DNA of 32,000 nucleotides. It comes from an uncultured Gammaproteobacteria bacterium. GTDB taxonomy: Bacteria > Patescibacteriota > Microgenomatia > Daviesbacterales > UBA10151. Below are positions 1,227 to 31,606 of this stretch, piece by piece. Below the pieces are notes generated by a model. The model did not search any database and had not been told where the DNA came from. It worked only from the letters and a program-made list of their open reading frames with translations. The position numbers and the translations under genes are program-made. Location of the stretch: positions 32,796 through 64,795 of the forward strand of contig CAYHYM010000004.1 of the NCBI GenBank assembly GCA_964360965.1, in the 5' to 3' direction. Positions within the stretch are counted from its first letter, which is position 1; every line of letters begins with the position of its first letter.

Positions 1227-2102
1227 GTGATTACTAAATCAAAACAGGAATATATTAAAAATGCTATTTATCTTTCCTATACTTCTTTAAATGATTTTTT
1301 GAAGTGTCCCGGGAGCTATTATTTAAAAAACATCTACAGAGATCCCAAAACCGGCTTTAGGATGCAGATTGCCTCACCTTATCTTTCTTTAGGTTCAACA
1401 GTCCATGATGCTATAAAGTGGCATATAGAAATGGCAGGCCCGCTTCGACTCGCGTCGAGCGAGGCGAGACAGGTAACATATGAACAATTGGAGGGAAAAT
1501 TTAGAAATCTATGGCTAAAATATACCGGTAAAAGAGGGGGTTTCTCCACCAAAGAAGATGAAGCAAGTTTTGGTAAGCGCGGCCTGTTAATGTTGGAGAA
1601 TTTTTTTAGAAATGCCAAAAACTTGGAAGATAAACATCACAGTATAGAATTTCCTAAATACCCATTATTGGATAATGTAATTTTAATGGGGAATTTTGAC
1701 TTTATTGGGGAAAAAGAGGATCAGACCTTACATGTTGTGGATTTTAAAACCGGAGCAAATGATGAAAAAGATCCAATTCAGCTTTATATTTATGCCATTT
1801 TGGCAGAGGCTAATTTGGAAAAATCAGTTTCTTCAGCTTCATTTTGGTATTTGGACAGGGAAGATAAACCGCGTGATATAGTTTTAGATCCGCTGGAACC
1901 AAAACTGGAATGGTTAAAAGAAAAAGCCACAGAGTTAAAAAAGGCAATTGGGGAGGGAATGTGGGTTTGTCCTTCGACTCGCTCCGCTCGCTCAGGATTA
2001 TGTAGAGATTGTAGAGACTATCATGCCATTTTGGATGGAAAAGGTGAATTTCAATTTACTGATTATAGATACAAGAAAGATGTTTATTACCTTCCCAAAT
2101 AG
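1227..2102 (+). CDS. PD-(D/E)XK Cas4/RecB-family nuclease with Fe-S-type cysteines
   Basis: 291 aa with a GTG start. VVDFKTG (D-x-K) and QLYIYA (QxxxY) match PD-(D/E)XK/Cas4-RecB motifs. Cys27 plus a C-terminal C-x10-C-x2-C resemble Cas4/AddB 4Fe-4S ligands. Confidence 0.7.
   Translation: MITKSKQEYIKNAIYLSYTSLNDFLKCPGSYYLKNIYRDPKTGFRMQIASPYLSLGSTVHDAIKWHIEMAGPLRLASSEARQVTYEQLEGKFRNLWLKYTGKRGGFSTKEDEASFGKRGLLMLENFFRNAKNLEDKHHSIEFPKYPLLDNVILMGNFDFIGEKEDQTLHVVDFKTGANDEKDPIQLYIYAILAEANLEKSVSSASFWYLDREDKPRDIVLDPLEPKLEWLKEKATELKKAIGEGMWVCPSTRSARSGLCRDCRDYHAILDGKGEFQFTDYRYKKDVYYLPK
1433..1473 (+). repeat. GC-rich TTCGAC-type mini-element copy inside the nuclease ORF (encodes GPLRLASSEARQ)
   Basis: ggcaggcccgcTTCGACtcgcGTCGAGcgaggcgagacagg is a sharp GC island in an AT-rich gene. 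It contains the hairpin TTCGAC/GTCGAG at 1444-1459. Confidence 0.5.
1971..1996 (+). repeat. GC-rich CCTTCGAC...GCTCAGG mini-element copy inside the nuclease ORF (encodes PSTRSARSG)
   Basis: CCTTCGACtcgctccgctcGCTCAGG shares both ends with the copy at 18491-18518. It lies between the first and second C-terminal cysteines. Confidence 0.55.
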
Positions 2103-4202: not shown

Positions 4203-4404
4203 TCAAGTGCCCAACTTAACTTCAGCTAAAGTGTTGTGTTTATGAAATCCATTAGAGGGGATCGACTCAAATAGCTTAATCGACGATATCCGTATTGGAT
4301 TAAAAGGCATGGCCATAAGTTTTTCCATTTCCACTTCTAATTTTTGATCTACTTTTAAATGGTTGTTGAGCTTGGAAATATTGAAATCTTCACTTTTGAT
4401 AAAG
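4203..4404 (-). pseudogene. 5'-truncated thpR/ligT paralogue remnant (copy B, about 65 codons, frame intact)
   Basis: Translates ..FIKSEDFNISKLNNHLKVDQKLEVEMEKLMAMPFNPIRISSIKLFESIPSNGFHKHNTLAEVKLGT*, collinear with the C-terminus of the gene at 9801-10367. Nt 4297-4375 are identical to 9892-9970 (79 nt). Confidence 0.85.
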
Positions 4405-6185: not shown

Positions 6186-7916
6186 ATGGCATTAAAAAGA
6201 ACTACCCTAAGGATAGATGAAGACTTAAAAAAAGATACTCAACAGCGAGCCTTAGAGGAGAATACCACTCAACAAGAAATTCTCAATAGAGCTTTAAAGA
6301 AATATTTAAGAACTGAGGTTCAGAAAGAGCTTGCTAGGGAAACAGTGGCCGAGCCACAGGAAGTAACTACAAAAAAGGCTAGTTCGAGTAAACCAGCAGA
6401 TGTAATTGATTTGATATTTAGCTCACTGGATATCGAAGCCAGGGGTTTTATTAAAAAGGGAGATTTGATAGATGCCCTTAATTTTAGAGGAATTCTAGAG
6501 GATGACATTAGGATTAAAAATGTCATGGAGGCTTTGAGTAAAACTAATAAAGACGATGATATCCCCCCCCAAACCTTCCGCAGGATTGTTGGGCCGTACA
6601 TTACATTAATTGAAAAAGCCCTGACTGGTAGTCTGGTTATCCCCGATTTTAAGAATTTCTGTAGTTTTATTACTAATCTTTATAATCGCACAATTCAAAA
6701 CAAAGATGGCGAGGTTTCAGATTACATACCTGAGCTAAAAGGAGTTGACCCAAATAACTATGCTATTTCCATTTGTACTATAGACGGACAGAGATTTAAT
6801 TTGGGAGATTACAATACTCCCTATCTAGCCCAATCTACTGCCAAACCCATAAATTATTGTCTGGCCTTAGAAGAGCACGGCGAAGAAGTAGTTCATAAAA
6901 AGATTGGCAGAGAACCTTTAGGCAAAGGTTTAAATCAGTTGACTCTAAACAGTCAAGGATTGCCGCATAATCCTTTAAATGGTACAGGAGCAATTATGTC
7001 GGCCTCCTTGATTGGCCAAGAACTTTCCCTGGAAGACCGTTTTGAACAGGCTTTAAAGAAATGGAAGTCGCTTTCCGGAGGAATTAATCCTGGATTTTCA
7101 AAATCAGCTTACGATTCAGCTAAACATGTTGCGGATAAAGATCTGGCGCTAGCTTATTTTATGAGATTGAATCAGTTGTTTTCCAAAGGATCAAATTTAG
7201 AAGAATATTTGGACTTTCTGTTTAAATGCTTATCTATTGAAACTACCACTGAAGCTCAAGCAATTATTGCTGCCACTTTGGCAAACGCCGGAGTTTGTCC
7301 GACCAATGGGGAAGCCGTGTTAAAAATGGAGACTACAAAGAATTGTTTATCTTTGATGTATTCCTGCGGTATGGAAGATTACTCGTCTGAGTTTGCTTTT
7401 GCAATAGGACTTCCTGCTAAAAGCGGTATTTCAGGATCGATTATGATAGTTGTGCCTAATGTGATGGGAATTGCGATTTATTCTCCTAGGGTTGATAGTA
7501 ATGGCAATAGTGTTAAAGGATTAGATTTATGTAATAAATTAATCCAGAGATTTAATTTTCATAATTACGATAGCTTAACTAAAAAACTGGATAAAATTGA
7601 TCCCAGGCTTTTGAAAAATGAAAATAAAATGAGGGGCGTGATGGCTGTTTGTACTGCTGCTTCTCAGGGAGATCTATATGAGATCCAAAGGTTAGAGGCC
7701 TCGGGGGTTGCTTTGGATGAAGGTGATTATGATGCCAGAACCGGCATACATCTGGCAGCCTCGGAAGGTCACGAAGAGGTAGTTCGCTATTTTATTGAAA
7801 GAAGAGTGGATATTAACCCTAAAGACCGTTGGGGTGGGACACCTTTAGCTGATGCCATGAGAGGTAACCACACTGCGGTAATTGAACTGTTGGAGAAAAA
7901 TGGAGCCAGGCTATGA
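6186..7916 (+). CDS. glsA: kidney-type (GLS-like) glutaminase with N-terminal RHH domain, EF-hand-like region and C-terminal ankyrin repeats
   Basis: 576 aa. The RHH is TLRIDEDLKKDTQQRALEENTTQQEILNRALKKYL. Glutaminase core motifs: YIPELK, CTIDGQR, QSTAKP (Ser-x-x-Lys), GLPAKSGISG, VVPNVMG, GNSVKG, NFHNYD. Three ANK repeats follow (DYDARTGIHLAASEGHEEVV..KDRWGGTPLADA). Confidence 0.85.
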   Translation: MALKRTTLRIDEDLKKDTQQRALEENTTQQEILNRALKKYLRTEVQKELARETVAEPQEVTTKKASSSKPADVIDLIFSSLDIEARGFIKKGDLIDALNFRGILEDDIRIKNVMEALSKTNKDDDIPPQTFRRIVGPYITLIEKALTGSLVIPDFKNFCSFITNLYNRTIQNKDGEVSDYIPELKGVDPNNYAISICTIDGQRFNLGDYNTPYLAQSTAKPINYCLALEEHGEEVVHKKIGREPLGKGLNQLTLNSQGLPHNPLNGTGAIMSASLIGQELSLEDRFEQALKKWKSLSGGINPGFSKSAYDSAKHVADKDLALAYFMRLNQLFSKGSNLEEYLDFLFKCLSIETTTEAQAIIAATLANAGVCPTNGEAVLKMETTKNCLSLMYSCGMEDYSSEFAFAIGLPAKSGISGSIMIVVPNVMGIAIYSPRVDSNGNSVKGLDLCNKLIQRFNFHNYDSLTKKLDKIDPRLLKNENKMRGVMAVCTAASQGDLYEIQRLEASGVALDEGDYDARTGIHLAASEGHEEVVRYFIERRVDINPKDRWGGTPLADAMRGNHTAVIELLEKNGARL

Positions 7917-8218
7917 AAAGTGATATTAAGACAACCGGAGTAATGGCGCTTGACTGGGCAGCGGCTCAGGGAGATTTGCACGAGATTCAAAGGTTAGTCG
8001 CATCCGGCGCAGATTTGAACGAAGGTGATTATGATGGGAGAACCGCAATACATCTGGCAGCCTCGGAAGGACAGGAAGAAATTGTCAGGTATTTAATTGC
8101 GAAAGGTGTAAATATTAATCCTAGGGATCGTTGGGGTGGGACACCTTTAGCTGATGCCATGAGAGGTAACCACACCAAAGTTATAGAGCTTTTGAAAAAA
8201 CATAATGCACAGAAATAA
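7913..8218 (+). CDS. stand-alone ankyrin-repeat protein, tandem duplicate of the glutaminase C-terminus
   Basis: 101 aa, collinear with residues ~480-576 of the preceding gene. Nt 8129-8175 are identical to 7827-7873. ATGA start/stop overlap at 7913-7916. Confidence 0.75.
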   Translation: MKSDIKTTGVMALDWAAAQGDLHEIQRLVASGADLNEGDYDGRTAIHLAASEGQEEIVRYLIAKGVNINPRDRWGGTPLADAMRGNHTKVIELLKKHNAQK

Positions 8219-9385: not shown

Positions 9386-9398
9386 ATTTTTGTAGAAA

Positions 9399-9518
9399 TC
9401 AAAGTAATTCTTTAAGTTCATCTATGGAAATTTCCACTGACTTTAAAATACTCATTAGAGTTTTTCTTTTGAGAGCTTTAATGACCTCCTTTGGCTTAAC
9501 AACTGGAATTTTGGGCAT
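9399..9518 (-). pseudogene. hicA: hicA toxin gene with 105-nt in-frame internal deletion (39 codons left)
   Basis: Translates MPKIPVVKPKEVIKALKRKTLMSILKSVEISIDELKELL*. The intact paralogue at 31043-31267 has MPKIPIVKPKEVIKALQRK[35 aa including GSH]...KRKTLMSILKSAEISIDELKKLL. Too short to appear in the ORF track. Confidence 0.85.
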
Positions 9519-9782
9519 TTAAGAAAGAGTTTGCTGGATGGGTATATCAATTGTTGTCATAAAGCTGGGACCTTTTTCTTCAGGAACTATTTCATTATGT
9601 TTTTTTAAACTGGCAATATATACGCTGATAGCATCTTTAACCATCTCCACAGCTTCTTCCAAACTGTTACCTTCTGTGACACATCCTGGCAGAGCAGGTA
9701 CAATCACCACATACCCACCTTCTTCAGCTGGTTCAAAAATAGCAGTATATTTTAAGATTTTTTGAGAGATTTTCTTAGCCAT
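9519..9782 (-). CDS. hicB: HicB-family antitoxin (copy 1)
   Basis: 87 aa. YTAIFEPAEEGGYVVIVPALPGCVTEGNSLEEAVEMVKDAI is the HicB/UPF0150 fold signature. TAA-ATG junction with hicA. Confidence 0.8.
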   Translation of the reverse strand: MAKKISQKILKYTAIFEPAEEGGYVVIVPALPGCVTEGNSLEEAVEMVKDAISVYIASLKKHNEIVPEEKGPSFMTTIDIPIQQTLS

Positions 9783-9800
9783 GGAGTTATTATAGCATTT

Positions 9801-10367
9801 TCAAACTAACTTTACTTCAGCTAAAGTATTATGTTTGTGGAAACCTTCTTGGGGAACTGATTCAAACAGTTTAATGGAGGAAATTTTAATGGGATTAAAA
9901 GGCATGGCCATAAGTTTTTCCATTTCCACTTCTAATTTTTGATCTACTTTTAAATGGTTGTTGAGCTTGGCAATGGTGATATGAGGAATGAAACGACGTT
10001 CATCTGCTGTGAGCCTTAAAGTGGCCAAGCTATCTTTGATGCGCTCACGAATAAGTAAAATTTTATCTATATCCCCTTTGACTCCAATCCAAAGAACTTG
10101 AGGATGGTGGAGGTTTGGAAATCCATCAATATAGGCAGGGGTAACTTCAAATGCAGGAATATTCGCTACAGCATTTCTGATAATTTCAACTAATTTATCC
10201 TTTAATCCATCCGGTTGTTCTCCTAAAAAAGCTAAAGTCAGGTGAATTTTGTCTAAATCAGTAATTCTTACTTGAGTAATTAATGTATGCAATTTAGCTT
10301 GTATAGCTTGAAACTGCAATCTATTCTCTTTCGGAATTTCAAGTGCTATGAAAAACCTTATACCCAT
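9801..10367 (-). CDS. thpR: RNA 2',3'-cyclic phosphodiesterase / 2'-5' RNA ligase (2H phosphoesterase)
   Basis: 188 aa with two H-x-T-x motifs (HLTLAFLG and HITIAKL) at the expected spacing. Confidence 0.8.
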   Translation of the reverse strand: MGIRFFIALEIPKENRLQFQAIQAKLHTLITQVRITDLDKIHLTLAFLGEQPDGLKDKLVEIIRNAVANIPAFEVTPAYIDGFPNLHHPQVLWIGVKGDIDKILLIRERIKDSLATLRLTADERRFIPHITIAKLNNHLKVDQKLEVEMEKLMAMPFNPIKISSIKLFESVPQEGFHKHNTLAEVKLV

Positions 10368-10419
10368 AAATCATACTATATTTGACAACGCTTTTAAAAA
10401 GTGCCTACACTTAAATAGT

Positions 10420-10734
10420 ATGGCAATGGCGGTTGAAGCTCCCCCTCAGCCAAGAGCAAAAGCTGAAATAAGAGTTATTAAATCTGATCCTGAAGTTTTG
10501 GATGAGCAAGTACTCTATCAACAAGGAGCTTATAAAAGAGTCAGGCAATATCTACGAGGCTGGTATCCTAAATTGGGAGTTTTACATATGGGCTGGCAAG
10601 GTCAAGAAACCATTGTAGAAAGAGATGTTATTACAGCCAGTGTAAGATTTAGAGTAAGCCAGGGTATTGATAGGTATACCTTCACTGACTTGACAAATAG
10701 ACCGGGATTTCTTATTGTTAAAGCAACAACTTAA
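10420..10734 (+). CDS. hypothetical protein (tracked ORF 10348-10734; ATG 10420 preferred)
   Basis: The 10348 start would overlap the thpR start. TTGACA 10382-10387, an 18-nt spacer and TACACT 10406-10411 precede ATG 10420. No motif recognised. Confidence 0.4.
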   Translation: MAMAVEAPPQPRAKAEIRVIKSDPEVLDEQVLYQQGAYKRVRQYLRGWYPKLGVLHMGWQGQETIVERDVITASVRFRVSQGIDRYTFTDLTNRPGFLIVKATT

Positions 10735-10736
10735 TA

Positions 10737-10926
10737 TTTAATCAAGAGTGATGGGGAGGGAATTGGCCCGTTGATCCATCCAGCAACTGATTCGAGTTTT
10801 CGAGAATCCTTAAGCGACTAGCGAAGGACCTCTAGAAACCGACCGCGGTGCTACACCCAAGCCCGCAAGGGAGGATTAGGTCTTTTAAAGGCAAAAATTG
10901 AACCTCTCTTGATGAGAGGTTTTTTA
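10737..10926 (+). promoter_or_regulatory. SAM-I (S-box) riboswitch with terminator expression platform
   Basis: UUAAUC-AAGAG-UGAUGGGGAGGGAAUUGGCCCGUUGAUCCAUCCAGCAAC...GGUGCUACACCC-AAGCCCGCAAGGGAGG-GAUUAGG matches the S-box core (AUCAAGAG, GAGGGA, GGCCC, UGA..CC, CAGCAAC, GGUGCUA). P1 pairs 10737-10743 with 10874-10880. P4 has a GCAA tetraloop. A terminator follows. Confidence 0.8.
10901..10926 (+). terminator. intrinsic terminator of the riboswitch expression platform
   Basis: AACCTCTC-ttgat-GAGAGGTT followed by a T run. The 5' arm plus loop (CTCTTGAT, 10907-10914) is complementary to ATCAAGAG (10741-10748), allowing an alternative pairing. Confidence 0.7.
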
Positions 10927-10944: not shown

Positions 10945-11304
10945 ATGGAAAGAAAAGAATTAATGCAGCAGTTAGTAGCTGAAGGAAGAACAAAACCTAG
11001 GGGTTTACTGACTATTATATTTGACGAAGAGAGTGAGTATGTCAGATTTGTGCGTGAGGCATATAATAGGTTTGGTGGTGAAGGATTAGAATTTACTAAC
11101 GTTCCGATTATCCTTAGTGCCCGTGTTAGACCCGGCCTATTGGAGCAAACCTGGGAAGAATTTAACTATAGACCAGTTACTAAAGAGGATTTAGATAAAG
11201 TTAGGGAGGAATTAAAAAAATGGAAGCCATGGGATCCGGCAATACTAAAAGATGGACATGTTCCAGGTTTTGCAGAACCAAAGGAAATATATATTGATTG
11301 GTAA
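10945..11304 (+). CDS. hypothetical 119-aa protein controlled by the SAM-I riboswitch
   Basis: Strong SD (GAAGGAGGTG) 5 nt upstream of the ATG. No recognisable domain. Confidence 0.6.
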   Translation: MERKELMQQLVAEGRTKPRGLLTIIFDEESEYVRFVREAYNRFGGEGLEFTNVPIILSARVRPGLLEQTWEEFNYRPVTKEDLDKVREELKKWKPWDPAILKDGHVPGFAEPKEIYIDW

Positions 11305-14379: not shown

Positions 14380-14479
14380 GTGAAGAGCCCTTCGACAAGG
14401 CTTCGACGGTGAGTCTTTCGACCCTGAGCTCAAGACCGAAGGGCTCAGCCGAACCGCTCAGGGTAAACTCTGTCGAACC
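14380..14479 (+). repeat. largest copy of the GC-rich TTCGAC/GCTCAGGG element; likely 5' leader of the solute-binding gene
   Basis: About 60% GC in an AT-rich intergenic region. Interleaved inverted repeats: GAGCCCTTCG 14385-14394 / CGAAGGGCTC 14437-14446, and ACCCTGAGC 14421-14429 / GCTCAGGGT 14456-14464. It ends at the base before ATG 14480. A TATAAT at 14360-14365 lies upstream. Confidence 0.65.
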
Positions 14480-15778
14480 ATGAAAAAAATTATTATTTTG
14501 GTTTTAGTTTTGGCCATTATTTTGGGAGTTTTAATATGGCGTTTTGGGCTGAGTAACAATTTAAAAAAAGTAGAGCCTGTTAATTTGACTTATTGGGGAC
14601 TGTGGGAAGAAGAAAATTTGTTAAAACCTTTGATTTTAGAGTATCAAAAACAAAATCCCAATGTGACAATAAGTTATGTTCGGCAATCATCAATCAATTA
14701 TAGAACCAGGGTTCAGGCTCAAATCAAAGAGGGGGTGGGGCCTGATATTTTTAGAATTCACAACTCCTGGCTGGGCATGTTTTTAAAAGAGGACAGTTTG
14801 GCTCCTGCTTCTGATGTGTTTACTCTAGCTGATTATAAAAATACCTTTTATCCTGTGGCAGCTGATTCTTTTATAACAGCTGATGCCATTTATGCAGCGC
14901 CCATGGAAGTTGATGGACTGGCCCTATTTTATAATGAAGACATGTTAAACGGGATCAACGGAAAACCACCTGAGAATTGGCAAGAATTTATAGAGATAGC
15001 CTTCAAAATGACTGTCCGGGATGCATCAGGAATAAAGACAGCAGGCGCCAGTTTAGGAACAGCCTCAAATGTTGATCACTTCTCGGATATAATAGGGTTG
15101 CTACTTTTACAACAACCTGGTGTGGATTTAACAAATGTGGCAACCCTTCAAGTTGCGGAGGTTTTAAGATTTTATACAGGCTTTGTGACAGATCCAGGGA
15201 AAAAAACTTGGGATGTCAATTTGCCTTCCTCAACTCAGATGTTTATAGAAGGACGCTTAGGTTTTTATTTTGCACCTTCTTGGAGAGCACATGAGATAAG
15301 AGTGGCCAACCCCAATTTGAAATTTAAGGTGGCACCAGTTCCACAGCTGGCAGGCAGGACAGTTGCTTGGGCTTCTCTTTGGGGTGAGGCTGTATCCAAA
15401 ACCAGTAAGAATAGGGAGGAAGCCTGGAAATTTGTCAAATATTTAACATCTGCTGAAGCTCAAAAACTTTTCTATACCGAGGTCTCAAAAGTAAGGTTTT
15501 TTGGGGAGCCTTATTCAAGGGTGGATTTGGCAGGGGAGATCTCGGAGGATCCTGTTGCAGGGGCTTTTGTGTCCCAGGGCCCGTATTATAAATTCTGGTA
15601 TTTATCATCCAACACCTATGACAACGGAATAAATGATGAGATGATTAAATACTGGGAGGATGGCATAAATGCCACCCTGGCTGGAACAGATCCACAGGTG
15701 GCCTTACAAACTGTGGAGAAAGGTGTAAAACAGGTGCTGGATAAATATACCAAAGCTGCTACTCCAAACACAAAATAA
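14480..15778 (+). CDS. ABC transporter extracellular solute-binding protein (family 1, sugar-type)
   Basis: 432 aa. N-terminal membrane anchor, then LTYWGLWEEENLLKPLILEYQKQNPNVTISY and PDIFRIHNSW, typical of SBP_bac_1 proteins. Confidence 0.7.
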   Translation: MKKIIILVLVLAIILGVLIWRFGLSNNLKKVEPVNLTYWGLWEEENLLKPLILEYQKQNPNVTISYVRQSSINYRTRVQAQIKEGVGPDIFRIHNSWLGMFLKEDSLAPASDVFTLADYKNTFYPVAADSFITADAIYAAPMEVDGLALFYNEDMLNGINGKPPENWQEFIEIAFKMTVRDASGIKTAGASLGTASNVDHFSDIIGLLLLQQPGVDLTNVATLQVAEVLRFYTGFVTDPGKKTWDVNLPSSTQMFIEGRLGFYFAPSWRAHEIRVANPNLKFKVAPVPQLAGRTVAWASLWGEAVSKTSKNREEAWKFVKYLTSAEAQKLFYTEVSKVRFFGEPYSRVDLAGEISEDPVAGAFVSQGPYYKFWYLSSNTYDNGINDEMIKYWEDGINATLAGTDPQVALQTVEKGVKQVLDKYTKAATPNTK

Positions 15779-19183: not shown

Positions 19184-20827
19184 ATGGCAAAGATGTTGAA
19201 ATTTAACCAAGAAGCTCGTGAGAAATTATTAAAGGGTATTAATATCCTGACAGAGGCTGTGGCTACCACTTTGGGGCCTAAGGGCAGAAATGTGGCTTTG
19301 GATAAGAAGTGGGGAGCACCAGCTGTTGTTCATGATGGAGTAACTGTGGCCAAAGAGATAGATTTGGAAGACCCGTTTGAAAACATGGGGGCACAACTTA
19401 TTAAAGAAGCAGCCTCAAAGACCAATGATGTGGCAGGAGACGGAACAACAACAGCCACCATTTTGGCCCAAGCAATGGTTTCAGAGGGCTTAAAAAATAT
19501 TCAGGCCGGAGCCAATCCCATGATTTTAAAACATGGCATGGAAAAGGCTGTGACAGCTTTGGTTGAAGAGCTCAAAAAGATGAGCAAAAAAGTAACTACT
19601 CAGGAAGAAATTGCTCAAGTGGCCACCATTGCCGCGGCAGATGTACAGATTGGCAATCTAATTGCCGAAGCCTTGCAAAAAGTGGGAAAAGACGGGGTGG
19701 TTACAGTTGAGGAAGGTAAAACTATGGAGATGGCTGTTGATTATAAAAAAGGGATGGAGTTTGATAAAGGTTTTGTTTCACCTTATTTTATAACTGATAC
19801 GGATAAAATGGAGGCAAGTAATGATGGGGAACCATATATTCTAATTACTGATAAGAAAATTTCTTCTGCCGCTGATCTTGTTCCATTTTTAGAAAAATTC
19901 GTACAGTACTCTAAAGATTTAGTAATAATTGCAGACGAAGTTGAAGGAGAAGCGCTGGCTTTATTAGTAGTAAATAAACTTCGCGGTACCTTCAATATTT
20001 TTGCAGTTAAGGCTCCAGGCTTTGGTGATCGCAGGAAAGAGATGTTGGAAGATATAGCAATTTTGACAGGTGGTACTGTTATTTCTGAAGACACAGGGAA
20101 AAAATTTGAATCAGTTGAAAAAGAGGATTTAGGAAGAGCTGGAAGGGTAACATCAGATAAAGACAACACTTTAATTGTTGATGGTAAGGGCGTCAAAGCC
20201 AGGATTGAAGGAAGAATTGCTCAAATAAGAAGGGAGCTGGAAACTTCAGATTCAGAATTTGACAAGGAAAAGCTACAAGAAAGATTGGCCAAATTAACAG
20301 GTGGAGTGGCTGTAGTTAATGTTGGAGCTGCCACAGAAATAGAACTGAAAGAGAAAAAAGAAAGGGTAATTGATGCAGTGGCAGCCACCAAAGCAGCAAT
20401 TGAGGAAGGAATTGTTCCTGGTGGAGAGGTAGCTTTAATTAGAGCAGCTAAAGTTTTGGACAGTGTGATTGCTGATGGGGACTCTTCGACAGGTTCAGGG
20501 CAAGAGGAAAAAGTTGGTGTAGAGATTGTCAAAAAAGCCCTGGAACAACCATTTAGGCAGTTGGTTAAAAATGCGGGAATGGATGAGGGTGTTGCCTTAG
20601 CAAAAGTTTTGGATTCGCAAGGCAATATGGGTATTGATGCTTTAGATGGTAACCTGAAAGATTTAGTTAAGGCAGGAATTATTGACCCGGTCAAAGTGAC
20701 CAGATCAGCTCTTCAGAATGCAGTATCCGTAGCTATTATGGTAATGACGACCCACGTTCTAATTTCTGACAAGCCTGAACCCCCAGCACCTCCCCCAATG
20801 CCCCCGGGCGGAAGGCCTGAGTACTAA
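19184..20827 (+). CDS. groEL: chaperonin GroEL
   Basis: 547 aa. Contains [46 protein letters not shown] and [11 protein letters not shown]. The C-terminal tail is Pro-rich ([17 protein letters not shown]) instead of the usual GGM repeats. Confidence 0.95.
20482..20504 (+). repeat. short TTCGAC...TCAGGG motif copy inside groEL (encodes DSSTGSGQ)
   Basis: CTCTTCGACaggTTCAGGGCAAG. Compare CCTTCGACttcgcTCAGGGTGAAG at 18492-18515. Local GC spike in a variable GroEL loop. Confidence 0.4.
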
Positions 20828-20877
20828 AGCGCCTTTACTTCTGAATTACGATATAAAATTAAGTTAAAATAAATCAT

Positions 20878-27511: not shown

Positions 27512-28413
27512 GCCTTAATTATGCCAATTTTGCTGACGTTTTGCCACATCTGATCCACAATTTGATCAATTGGTTGATTTTTTATCCGGGCAATTTCTTT
27601 AACCACTTCTAAAACATAGGCAGGTTCGTTTCTCTGTCCCCGTTTTGATTGTGGCGGTAAAAAAGGAGAATCAGTTTCGATGGTAATTTTTTCCAAAGGT
27701 AGGATCCTGGCGGCTTCTTGTAGATATTCATTTTGGGGATAGGTGATATTGCCGGCAAAGGAAACCAGGAAATTAGTTTGCAGTATGCGGTTGGTAGTTG
27801 GTAGTAAGCCACTATAACAGTGGTAAATACCAAAGTAGTCTTTTGTCATCTTCAAGACTTCATCCCAGGCCGAAGGAGACGAAGTCTCCGCAGGTGGTGA
27901 GCCACTCGGCACTGAGCTCACGGCCGAAGTGCCTGTCGAACCGCTACTTTTTGATCTGTCATCCCGGCAGTGAACAATTAAAGGAAGGTTAAGTTTTTTT
28001 GCTAAATCAATTTGAGCTTGGAAAAGCTGCCTTTGTAGGTTTTTAACAATAAACACCTCCGAGGTGGGCTTTGACTCCCCGGAGGTGGAGAAAGCATAAT
28101 CCAGGCCGCACTCTCCAACAGCTACTACTTTATCTACATTATCTAAATATATTTTTTCTAAACTTTTTATATCTTTTTGGATAGATATGTCTAGGTTATC
28201 TTTATACTTAACTGCCTCATGAGGATGAATGCCAATCGAAGAATAAAATTTTAATTTGTTAGAATTTAACTCTGCTGCGATTTTGGAAGTTTCAACATCT
28301 ACACCAATATTAATGATAATGCCTACATCAGCATCTAAGGAATGTCTAATCACTTCGTCAAAGTCTTGTTTAAAACTATCCCAATATAAATGTGCATGAG
28401 TATCAATTAACAT
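27508..28413 (-). CDS. tatD: TatD-family metal-dependent hydrolase/DNase carrying a ~27-aa low-complexity insertion
   Basis: Contains MLIDTHAHLYWD, GECGLDY, VHCRD and YHCYSG motifs. It is 301 aa versus the usual ~260; the extra SSGSTGTSAVSSVPSGSPPAETSSPSA is encoded by the GC-rich element. Confidence 0.85.
   Translation of the reverse strand: MLIDTHAHLYWDSFKQDFDEVIRHSLDADVGIIINIGVDVETSKIAAELNSNKLKFYSSIGIHPHEAVKYKDNLDISIQKDIKSLEKIYLDNVDKVVAVGECGLDYAFSTSGESKPTSEVFIVKNLQRQLFQAQIDLAKKLNLPLIVHCRDDRSKSSGSTGTSAVSSVPSGSPPAETSSPSAWDEVLKMTKDYFGIYHCYSGLLPTTNRILQTNFLVSFAGNITYPQNEYLQEAARILPLEKITIETDSPFLPPQSKRGQRNEPAYVLEVVKEIARIKNQPIDQIVDQMWQNVSKIGIIKA
27864..27947 (+). repeat. GC-rich element copy inserted in-frame in tatD (element orientation opposite to the gene)
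   Basis: By eye, about 77% identity between 27896-27947 and 14408-14460 (GGTGAG..CTGAGCTCA..CCGAAG..CGAACCGCT). Internal hairpins are GGAGAC-gaa-GTCTCC and GTGAGC/GCTCAC. Confidence 0.7.
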
Positions 28414-30993: not shown

Positions 30994-31042
30994 TTAAACT
31001 CCTATTACTTCAAAGGTTGAGCCCACTGAATTTTTAGAAACC
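30994..31042 (-). pseudogene. displaced 3'-end remnant of the SbcC-like ATPase gene
   Basis: The minus strand translates (E)VSKNSVGSTFEVIGV*. Compare EVSKNATGSTFEVIGT* at the end of the partial gene at 31842-32000. It starts at the hicA stop codon. Confidence 0.75.
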
Positions 31043-31267
31043 TCAAAGTAATTTTTTAAGTTCATCAATAGAAATTTCAGCAGATTTTAAAATACTCATT
31101 AAAGTTTTTCTTTTGATAACTTTATTATGATAAGCAATAGTGGCTCTGAGAGTTTTATCAGAATTGTACATGACATAATGGCTTCCACTAATATGATCTA
31201 TTATAAAGTCCTTTCTTTGTAGAGCTTTGATAACCTCTTTTGGTTTAACAATCGGAATTTTTGGCAT
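31043..31267 (-). CDS. hicA: HicA-family toxin (copy 2, intact)
   Basis: 74 aa. KPKEVIKALQRKDFIIDHISGSHYVM contains the GSH motif. Confidence 0.8.
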   Translation of the reverse strand: MPKIPIVKPKEVIKALQRKDFIIDHISGSHYVMYNSDKTLRATIAYHNKVIKRKTLMSILKSAEISIDELKKLL

Positions 31268-31528
31268 TTAAGAAGGGGAGGAGATGGGTATATCTATGGT
31301 GGTCATAAAGCTGGGCCCTTTTTCTTCAGGGACAGGTTCATGATGTTTTTTCAAACTAGCAATATACCCAGTTATAGCATCTTTAACCATCTCTACAGCT
31401 TCTTCTAAACTGTCCCCCTCTGTGATACAACCTGGTAGGGCAGGAACATAGACTACATAGCCACCTTCTTCAGCTGGTTCAAAAATAGCAGTATATTTTA
31501 GAATTTTTTGAGAGATCTTCTTAGTCAT
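31268..31528 (-). CDS. hicB: HicB-family antitoxin (copy 2)
   Basis: 86 aa, roughly 85-90% identical by eye to the copy at 9519-9782. Confidence 0.8.
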   Translation of the reverse strand: MTKKISQKILKYTAIFEPAEEGGYVVYVPALPGCITEGDSLEEAVEMVKDAITGYIASLKKHHEPVPEEKGPSFMTTIDIPISSPS

Positions 31529-31606
31529 AGTTTAATTTTACTACTTTTTACTTTCAAAAACTAGATGCTTGACATCCAGAGAGAAAGAGAGTTAAATAAA
31601 GGTAAT

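Follow-up and report, generated by a model that had tools for sequence, protein, structure and literature searches.

The DNA analysed here is a 32,000-nucleotide stretch of contig CAYHYM010000004.1 (the window; GC content 38%), and the subject of this report is a short GC-rich block that lies in frame within its tatD gene and probably belongs to a dispersed family of palindromic repeats (Table 1). The closest homologues of the encoded TatD carry the name Candidatus Daviesbacteria, which places them in the candidate phyla radiation (CPR). The gene itself is intact, judging by its sequence and by a structural model of its product. This view is based on the presence in the reading frame of the motifs DTHAHL, GECGLDY, HCRD and HCYSG; on the match of residues 3-295 to Pfam TatD_DNase (PF01026, E=3.6e-62), the only family returned by a Pfam scan of the protein; on homologues in the PDB (1j6o, 2gzx and 1yix); on the invariance of H6, H8, E101, H148, H198 and D248 across the 120 closest homologues; and on an AlphaFold (AF2) model with a mean predicted local distance difference test score (pLDDT) of 89.2, which matches 1j6o in Foldseek (E=9e-21) and reaches target-normalised TM-scores of 0.86-0.90 when laid over 1j6o, 6l25 and 1xwy. 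The protein is thus a member of the TatD family, a TIM-barrel hydrolase with HxH, GExGLD, HxR(D), HxxSG and ETDxP motifs, in agreement with an earlier reading of the same DNA (hereafter the original prediction), which described the enzyme as otherwise canonical.

The stretch between HCRD and HCYSG is around 25 residues longer than in solved TatDs (residues 156-193 compared with 147-159 of 1j6o), and the extra residues reported by the original prediction are indeed there. Their origin as a clean insertion of 81 nt, however, is not borne out. The block comprises 78 nt and stands where insert-free alleles have 18 nt (six codons, NPENSE or DPNNSE), and the net gain is thus 60 nt; its limits, first given as 27864-27947, have been corrected accordingly. 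The block keeps the reading frame, as was claimed, and contains no stop codon. A length divisible by three does not, however, by itself point to selection: the long and short tatD alleles differ by exactly 30 nt, the size of one palindromic layer (see below). In composition the block differs from its surroundings. Its GC content is 63% compared with 37% in the remainder of tatD, and it lies in an island that reaches 67% at 27849-27968 (60-nt sliding window); TCG provides four of its 11 serine codons as opposed to 4% of the serines in 22 other open reading frames (ORFs) of the window, and the likelihood of its codon choice falls in the lowest 0.06% of simulations (p=0.0006). In the model residues 151-181 form a coil between a strand (145-148) and a helix (182-189), and pLDDT drops below 50 at residues 156-170. 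The insert peptide is predicted to be a disordered Ser/Thr/Gly/Pro-rich loop after the HCRD strand of the TatD barrel, and the surface-loop position proposed for it is consistent with its place in a low-confidence coil of an otherwise confident TatD model. The two hairpins ascribed to the element are both present as stems, GGAGAC-gaa-GTCTCC and GTGAGC...GCTCAC. They do not, however, give the tatD copy a fold more stable than that of shuffled sequences, and the same is true of a second copy in the window, at 14.4 kb; hairpin stability was for this reason dropped as evidence.

Table 1. Position of the tatD gene, of the GC-rich blocks within it and of the second family copy in the window
Feature	Position	Strand	Basis or context
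tatD, intact TatD-family metal-dependent hydrolase, 301 amino acids	27508..28413	-	
GC-rich in-frame block, 78 nt, residues 156-181, SSGSTGTSAVSSVPSGSPPAETSSPS	27871..27948	-	length classes, codon alignments, GC content, codon use, low pLDDT
48-nt unit common to copies in unrelated genes; sense strand GGTTCGACAGGCACTTCGGCCGTGAGCTCAGTGCCGAGTGGCTCACCA, translated GSTGTSAVSSVPSGSP	27895..27942	-	
Inner 30-nt palindromic layer, present in long alleles and missing from short ones	27901..27930	.	codon alignments
27-nt core TCGGCACTGAGCTCACGGCCGAAGTGC, fitting the pattern used in collection scans	27906..27932	+	
Tail of the block with hairpin GGAGAC-gaa-GTCTCC (27875-27889, +); encodes PAETSSPS	27871..27894	-	
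Further GC-rich hairpin block lying in frame in tatD, FSTSGESKPTSEVF, a different repeat type	28051..28092	-	loop after GECGLDY
Intergenic multi-layer copy of the family, core 14418-14444	14384..14479	+	fills the spacer immediately upstream of the ATG of the gene (14480-15778) for a solute-binding protein

Of all other sequence in the window, the 14.4-kb copy aligns best with the insert. The local alignment pairs 14408-14458 with 27896-27946 (40 of 51 positions identical, score 21), a score reached by none of 300 dinucleotide shuffles, which average 10.9 +/- 1.0. The two copies align on the plus strand, such that the element is antisense to tatD; a weaker inverted alignment also exists, as the element is palindromic. 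The homology to 14408-14460 in reverse orientation to the gene, noted in the original prediction, is therefore upheld for part of the block (about 27895-27946) but does not extend to the whole of it, the tail at 27871-27894 being without a match there. A metagenome locus (L091, on a contig labelled Hain, ERZ1292623) has the same sequence as the 14.4-kb region of the window, and an arrangement nearly identical to 14384-14479 sits in frame inside a GH57 ORF (L124).

Beyond the window the core defines a widely dispersed family. Collections were scanned with a 27-nt core pattern, TCGNNNCTGAGCTCANGNCCGAAGNGC, which specifies 21 bases, so that by our estimate about one match or fewer would be expected by chance; at least 120 metagenome stretches matched. 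Among the matches listed, the contigs that carry the core range from 35 to 71% GC, the core is near-invariant across very different hosts, and conservation continues past the pattern itself, as GAG-YCNT on the left and TCA on the right. Most of the 121 listed copies are intergenic. In 2.9 million viral contigs the core was matched once and the tatD tail not at all, and the idea that phages act as the vector was rejected on these grounds. Across the copies, complementarity about the central GAGC|TC is near-perfect at most positions for some 17 nt on each side and stays above background to about 33 nt. When exactly 30 nt are deleted, a GAGCTCA centre reappears in 22 of 102 distinct copies, compared with ten for 33 nt and none to three for other lengths. 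The tatD alleles behave in the same way: the short allele equals the long allele minus the internal 30-nt palindrome. Taken together these comparisons support a nested, layered architecture around a central GAGCTC, of which the long and short forms of tatD would be one instance. The original prediction knew of no described equivalent, and full-text literature searches for the family and for its typical peptide strings likewise turned up none; the family is apparently undescribed and far wider spread than the Rickettsia palindromic elements (RPEs) with which it was first compared.

Copies of the element are also found in frame in other conserved genes, which, together with the dispersed core, bears out the proposal that the tatD block is one member of a repeat family. 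Of the 121 listed copies, 11 are flanked on both sides by at least 60 stop-free codons. Translation and Pfam identify five of the hosts as BipA/TypA (L189), an ABC-F ATPase (L172), AspRS (L121), a XerC/D-like recombinase (L195) and GH57 (L124), and in these five the Pfam domain is interrupted by the insert or ends before it; a carbamoyl-phosphate-synthase-like ORF (L098) and a ValRS-like ORF (L164, on a contig of 69% GC) were named from their translations only. Over 51 nt, the 48-nt unit plus 3 nt on its 5' side, identity to the window tatD copy is 44 nt for bipA, 43 for ABC-F, 41 for aspS and 39 for the xerC-like gene. These four copies and that of tatD make up the GCACTTCGG subfamily, and all five use the same one of four stop-free frames, STSA[VM]SS[VA]P[NSR]GS. 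The BipA of L189 is nearest to proteins of Wolfebacteria and Harrisonbacteria, and its gene has 57 nt in place of 9 nt; homologues at 87-92% amino acid identity contain neither of the two inserts of this protein. The second of these, ASPDGGEPRPLSGR, is likewise GC-rich and adds 42 nt net (residues ~408-421 of P0121). The L098 ORF combines a core copy, SLSTLSSRPKGQ, with a further repeat-like stretch, KSQITNHKQIPNSNNQ...LFGAWNLELGAS, and one gene may thus hold several repeat types. A peptide search with a 66-residue concatenate of the four open frames gave no candidates, and the census of insert-bearing proteins was drawn exclusively from DNA matches.

Among the 120 homologues closest to the window TatD, the distance from VHCRD to HCYSG is 36 residues in 107 sequences (typically HCRDDRSK-NPENS-EAWDEV) and 26 in one shorter form, 42-49 in ten (typically ...GSGSTGSPPQETSSPS...) and 56 in two, the window and P0002. 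The insert is thus missing from 108 of the 120, most of which hold the six codons NPENSE at the position of the block, as well as from solved TatD structures, and the lineage-specificity that an alignment of orthologues had been expected to reveal is evident. The long form of the insert occurs in the window and P0002, and the short form in P0003, P0016, P0019 and P0074. As a separate observation, the length classes of 26, 36, 46 and 56 residues are spaced by ten residues or 30 nt, the size of one palindromic layer, and the 36-residue form that we term empty may itself contain an older, decayed layer. A scan of a genome collection for TatD loci returned, among the matches listed, mostly distant phyla and about six Daviesbacteria-like sequences; DNA of the orthologues was therefore retrieved protein by protein. 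Among the tatD alleles of different Daviesbacteria that could be cleanly aligned, the insert is 79-92% identical at the DNA level (75-100% at third codon positions), whereas elsewhere in these genes identity drops to 63-72%, and third positions (42-54%) are close to saturation. Differences between inserts fall mostly at first and second codon positions; within the hairpin GGAGAC-nnn-GTCTCC it is the loop that varies between alleles, and the stems are retained. The insert is conserved as DNA and not as protein, since its third positions are retained in genes that are elsewhere at synonymous saturation. The orthologues that share the loop proved to be these other Daviesbacteria, in which the element is present, and not unrelated taxa with a similar Ser/Pro-rich loop that lacks it.

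The distribution of the insert is patchy. The nearest relatives of most insert-bearing TatDs are empty. Filled P0019 and empty P0112 share 79.6% of their DNA positions outside the variable loops, whereas pairs of filled alleles are only 65-72% identical. Deletion could not recreate the empty state, because the insert-free alleles have the conserved NPENSE motif in common. A first neighbour-joining tree of tatD pointed to at least four origins of the insert, but bootstrapped trees required 8-12 gains or losses compared with 10-12 for random placement, and the tree was rejected as a means of counting gains in favour of nearest-neighbour and filled/empty pair comparisons. The window and P0002 share the insert discussed here, and the window and P0004 share a second block, in the loop after GECGLDY, although P0004 is without the first. 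The second block is identical to that of P0004 (L085) at 40 of 42 nt while the flanking third positions differ, and its hairpin folds with z = -3.3. Across the TatD homologues the post-GECGLDY loop varies from 24 to 86 residues. Larger inserts at this position in other Daviesbacteria (P0099, P0108, P0112 and P0002; L208, L081), with the peptides SPSAQNDR, FTLSPSDKLGVNVAEVL and SLITQDDRKEVAQDD, look like other GC-rich repeat types, so that the loop may be another hot spot in which more than one family of repeats has settled.

The reading that best accommodates these observations, to which we assign a probability of roughly three in four, is that the tatD block represents one copy of a GC-rich family of palindromic repeats, dispersed and modular, and consists of selfish or neutral DNA that is tolerated in frame in a surface loop. 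Such an element would spread horizontally or be recopied from other genomic copies, and copies that land in genes would survive only if the frame is kept, one of four stop-free frames (in practice the hydrophilic TSAVSSVP) is used and the site is a tolerant surface loop. As neither tatD nor bipA displays a target-site duplication, 9-18 nt of host DNA are replaced and the layer measures exactly 30 nt, entry would most likely occur through hairpin- or single-strand-based copying or through templated repair, and a cut-and-paste transposon would be less likely.

Several points weigh against this interpretation. The tail at 27871-27894 is present in all the filled tatD alleles searched and, in about 2 Mb of fetched loci, in tatD alone; the tatD inserts are thus probably related to each other, which suggests that they descend from one tatD-specific event and were spread between alleles by recombination. 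As the tatD tree is nearly a star and its counts are near those of random placement, independent gains are not proven. The tatD copy as a whole is no more stably folded than shuffled sequence (z = -0.9 to -1.4), and neither a transposase nor a target-site duplication nor a clean empty site came to light. The similarity of the copies may reflect a uniform constraint at the nucleotide level instead of recent spread. Finally, the translation of the insert, and its tolerance when translated, are predictions from an open reading frame.

It could be argued, from the same nucleotide-level conservation, that the insert serves a function as nucleic acid, for instance as a hairpin in mRNA or DNA that controls translation, mRNA stability or protein binding, is inherited vertically under nucleotide-level selection and yields its peptide as a by-product. 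This would explain why the identity of the insert is far above that of its flanks and equal at all codon positions, why the stems of GGAGAC-nnn-GTCTCC are kept while the loop varies, and why the core is near-invariant across very different hosts. It should be emphasized, however, that 108 of 120 homologues, including the closest relatives of filled alleles, have no insert, and that simple loss could not have recreated their NPENSE codons. The same unit, moreover, occurs in unrelated genes and in intergenic DNA, the tatD copy folds like shuffled sequence, and Rfam searches of the window (gathering threshold) and of ten loci (E<=1) detected tRNAs alone. We therefore consider this explanation unlikely.

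Two further alternatives are very improbable. The first is that a Ser/Gly/Pro linker expanded locally by slippage under selection on the protein, with no relation to mobile or repeated DNA. The peptide is certainly of low complexity and rich in Ser, Thr, Gly and Pro, and the length of the loop among homologues changes in ten-residue steps, but expansion of this kind is contradicted by codon use that is atypical of the genome and by third positions that are conserved while amino acids change, and likewise by the 39-44 of 51 nt shared with the bipA, ABC-F, aspS and xerC-like copies of other organisms and by the significant match to 14408-14458. The second, which we hold to be just as implausible, is that the insert does not reach the mature protein, either through excision in the manner of an intron or intein or through programmed translational bypassing similar to that of the byps of yeast mitochondria, which GC-rich hairpin inserts in AT-rich coding DNA do resemble. 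All 12 insert-bearing TatDs and the copies in five other genes are, however, stop-free, in frame and in one preferred frame, and this consistent open frame makes bypassing or splicing unnecessary; in addition, inteins and group I/II introns are longer than the 78 nt (26 amino acids) of the insert, and there is no Rfam match. Least probable of all is a chimeric join through a repeat during assembly or binning, for although repeats can misassemble in metagenomes, the same insert is found at the same codon in independent assemblies of Logan, NCBI, JGI and ENA samples, and the frame and the TatD domain run on through both sides.

A more far-reaching version of the selfish-repeat interpretation can be put forward tentatively, at odds that we place clearly below even. 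The family might represent an undescribed class of ultra-small mobile DNA in CPR and other uncultivated bacteria, in which 30-nt layers home into GAGC^TC centres and look-alike sites, keep the frame by virtue of their length, occupy, in a single preferred frame, surface loops of proteins that are essential, and move between distant hosts fast enough to remain ~85-90% identical even as the host genes become saturated with synonymous changes.

In-frame selfish DNA in protein genes is best known from Rickettsia (PMC10969869). This study suggests that a comparable but much smaller family of elements is widespread in CPR and other environmental bacteria. If this is true, such elements would explain some of the numerous insertions and length variants still unaccounted for in CPR proteins, and would give rise to spurious ORFs and to artefacts of alignment or annotation in metagenomes. 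They would also provide a natural system in which to explore how tiny DNA elements of no coding capacity move, and how disordered loops come to join essential enzymes. The most puzzling aspect of the family is its conservation at the nucleotide level across hosts of 35-71% GC.

Other repeats and unusual segments were noted elsewhere in the window. A GC-rich palindrome, GGCCCGCTTCGACTCGCGTCGAGCGAGGC, at 1414-1496 (+) is in frame, as AGPLRLASSEARQ, in a PD-(D/E)XK nuclease ORF (1227-2102) and is possibly another insertion, and a GC-rich (63%) intergenic island at 10806-10885, between the ORFs 10348-10734 and 10945-11304, has no Rfam or tRNA match. At 6186-8218 a glutaminase is fused to EF-hand and ankyrin repeats and is followed by a separate ankyrin ORF; a direct repeat of 290 nt (7612-7901 and 7914-8203, 76% identical) shows that the ankyrin region has been duplicated in tandem. 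At 9386-9982, 31030-31547 and 4213-4387 small ORFs are covered by paralogous segments that are dispersed and 83-86% identical (families D2, D3, D5 and D7); these segments may be cassettes of duplicated small genes. In GroEL, the C-terminal tail (20745-20846) is GC-rich and Pro-rich in place of the usual Gly-Met repeats.

With respect to known systems, comparable elements include the small dispersed repeats (SDRs) of Nostoc and, in fungal mitochondria, the mobile GC clusters, double-hairpin elements and byps, all hairpin-forming repeats of ~20-60 nt. Such repeats nest in one another, enter coding regions of AT-rich genomes and are patchy in their presence; byps are skipped by the ribosome, and SDRs are not known outside one cyanobacterial group. 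The family described here similarly consists of very small, nested hairpin repeats of patchy occurrence, but its hosts and sequences differ and, in contrast with ribosome-skipped byps, its copies look as though they are translated. Inteins and self-splicing introns are a poor match, as the insert encodes 26 amino acids and adds neither an Rfam match nor an extra Pfam family.

[quoted passage not shown] At the two filled/empty junctions examined a short host stretch is replaced instead of being duplicated: in tatD 48 or 78 nt replace 18, in bipA 57 replace 9, and neither junction is duplicated. The inverted-repeat ends of the unit are trivial, because the whole unit is palindromic, and no parent IS was identified for the ends of the element.

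Repetitive extragenic palindromic (REP) sequences and their paired form, REPINs, resemble the family in being short (20-40 nt for REPs), GC-rich, imperfect palindromes of many copies that are often paired or nested (PMC3116915, PMC3733652), as the pairing profile and copy numbers of the present family indicate. REPs, and perhaps the present family with them, are presumed to move in the form of hairpins of single-stranded DNA. REPs are mobilised by REP-associated tyrosine transposases (RAYTs), include superfamilies tagged by GTAG/CGTC, and are extragenic by definition and typically specific to a species or genus (PMC3116915, PMC3733652). The family differs in that the tatD copy of the window is located within an ORF, as are at least six others, and in that the core is near-identical across very different hosts; among the 13 scanned ORFs of the 32-kb window, none encodes a Y1 transposase or RAYT. 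A GTAG at the 5' edge of the window copy was considered as a REP tag and rejected, as it is not conserved in other alleles.

The closest parallel is with RPEs, which are elements of ~100-150 bp confined to Rickettsia (Ogata et al. 2000, summarised in PMC10969869). Both RPEs and the present family are palindromic repeats that occupy intergenic DNA and lie in frame inside unrelated housekeeping genes; both add peptide segments, predicted ones in the present family, at positions compatible with the fold, and neither encodes a transposase (PMC10969869). In the present family the genic copies are those of tatD, bipA, ABC-F, aspS, the xerC-like gene and GH57, and the tatD insert lies in coil of low pLDDT. 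Relative to that same description, the family is set apart from RPEs by its size (30-78 nt for the copies considered, 30-80 nt for the family), its host, Candidatus Daviesbacteria, its high GC content in an AT-rich genome and its nested 30-nt layers, and by its occurrence on contigs of 35-71% GC and in two CPR lineages, Daviesbacteria for tatD and a Parcubacteria-like lineage for bipA. The analogy with RPEs drawn in the original prediction is thus largely right and, if anything, understated, in that copies occur in frame in unrelated genes and the tatD copy occupies a site compatible with the fold.

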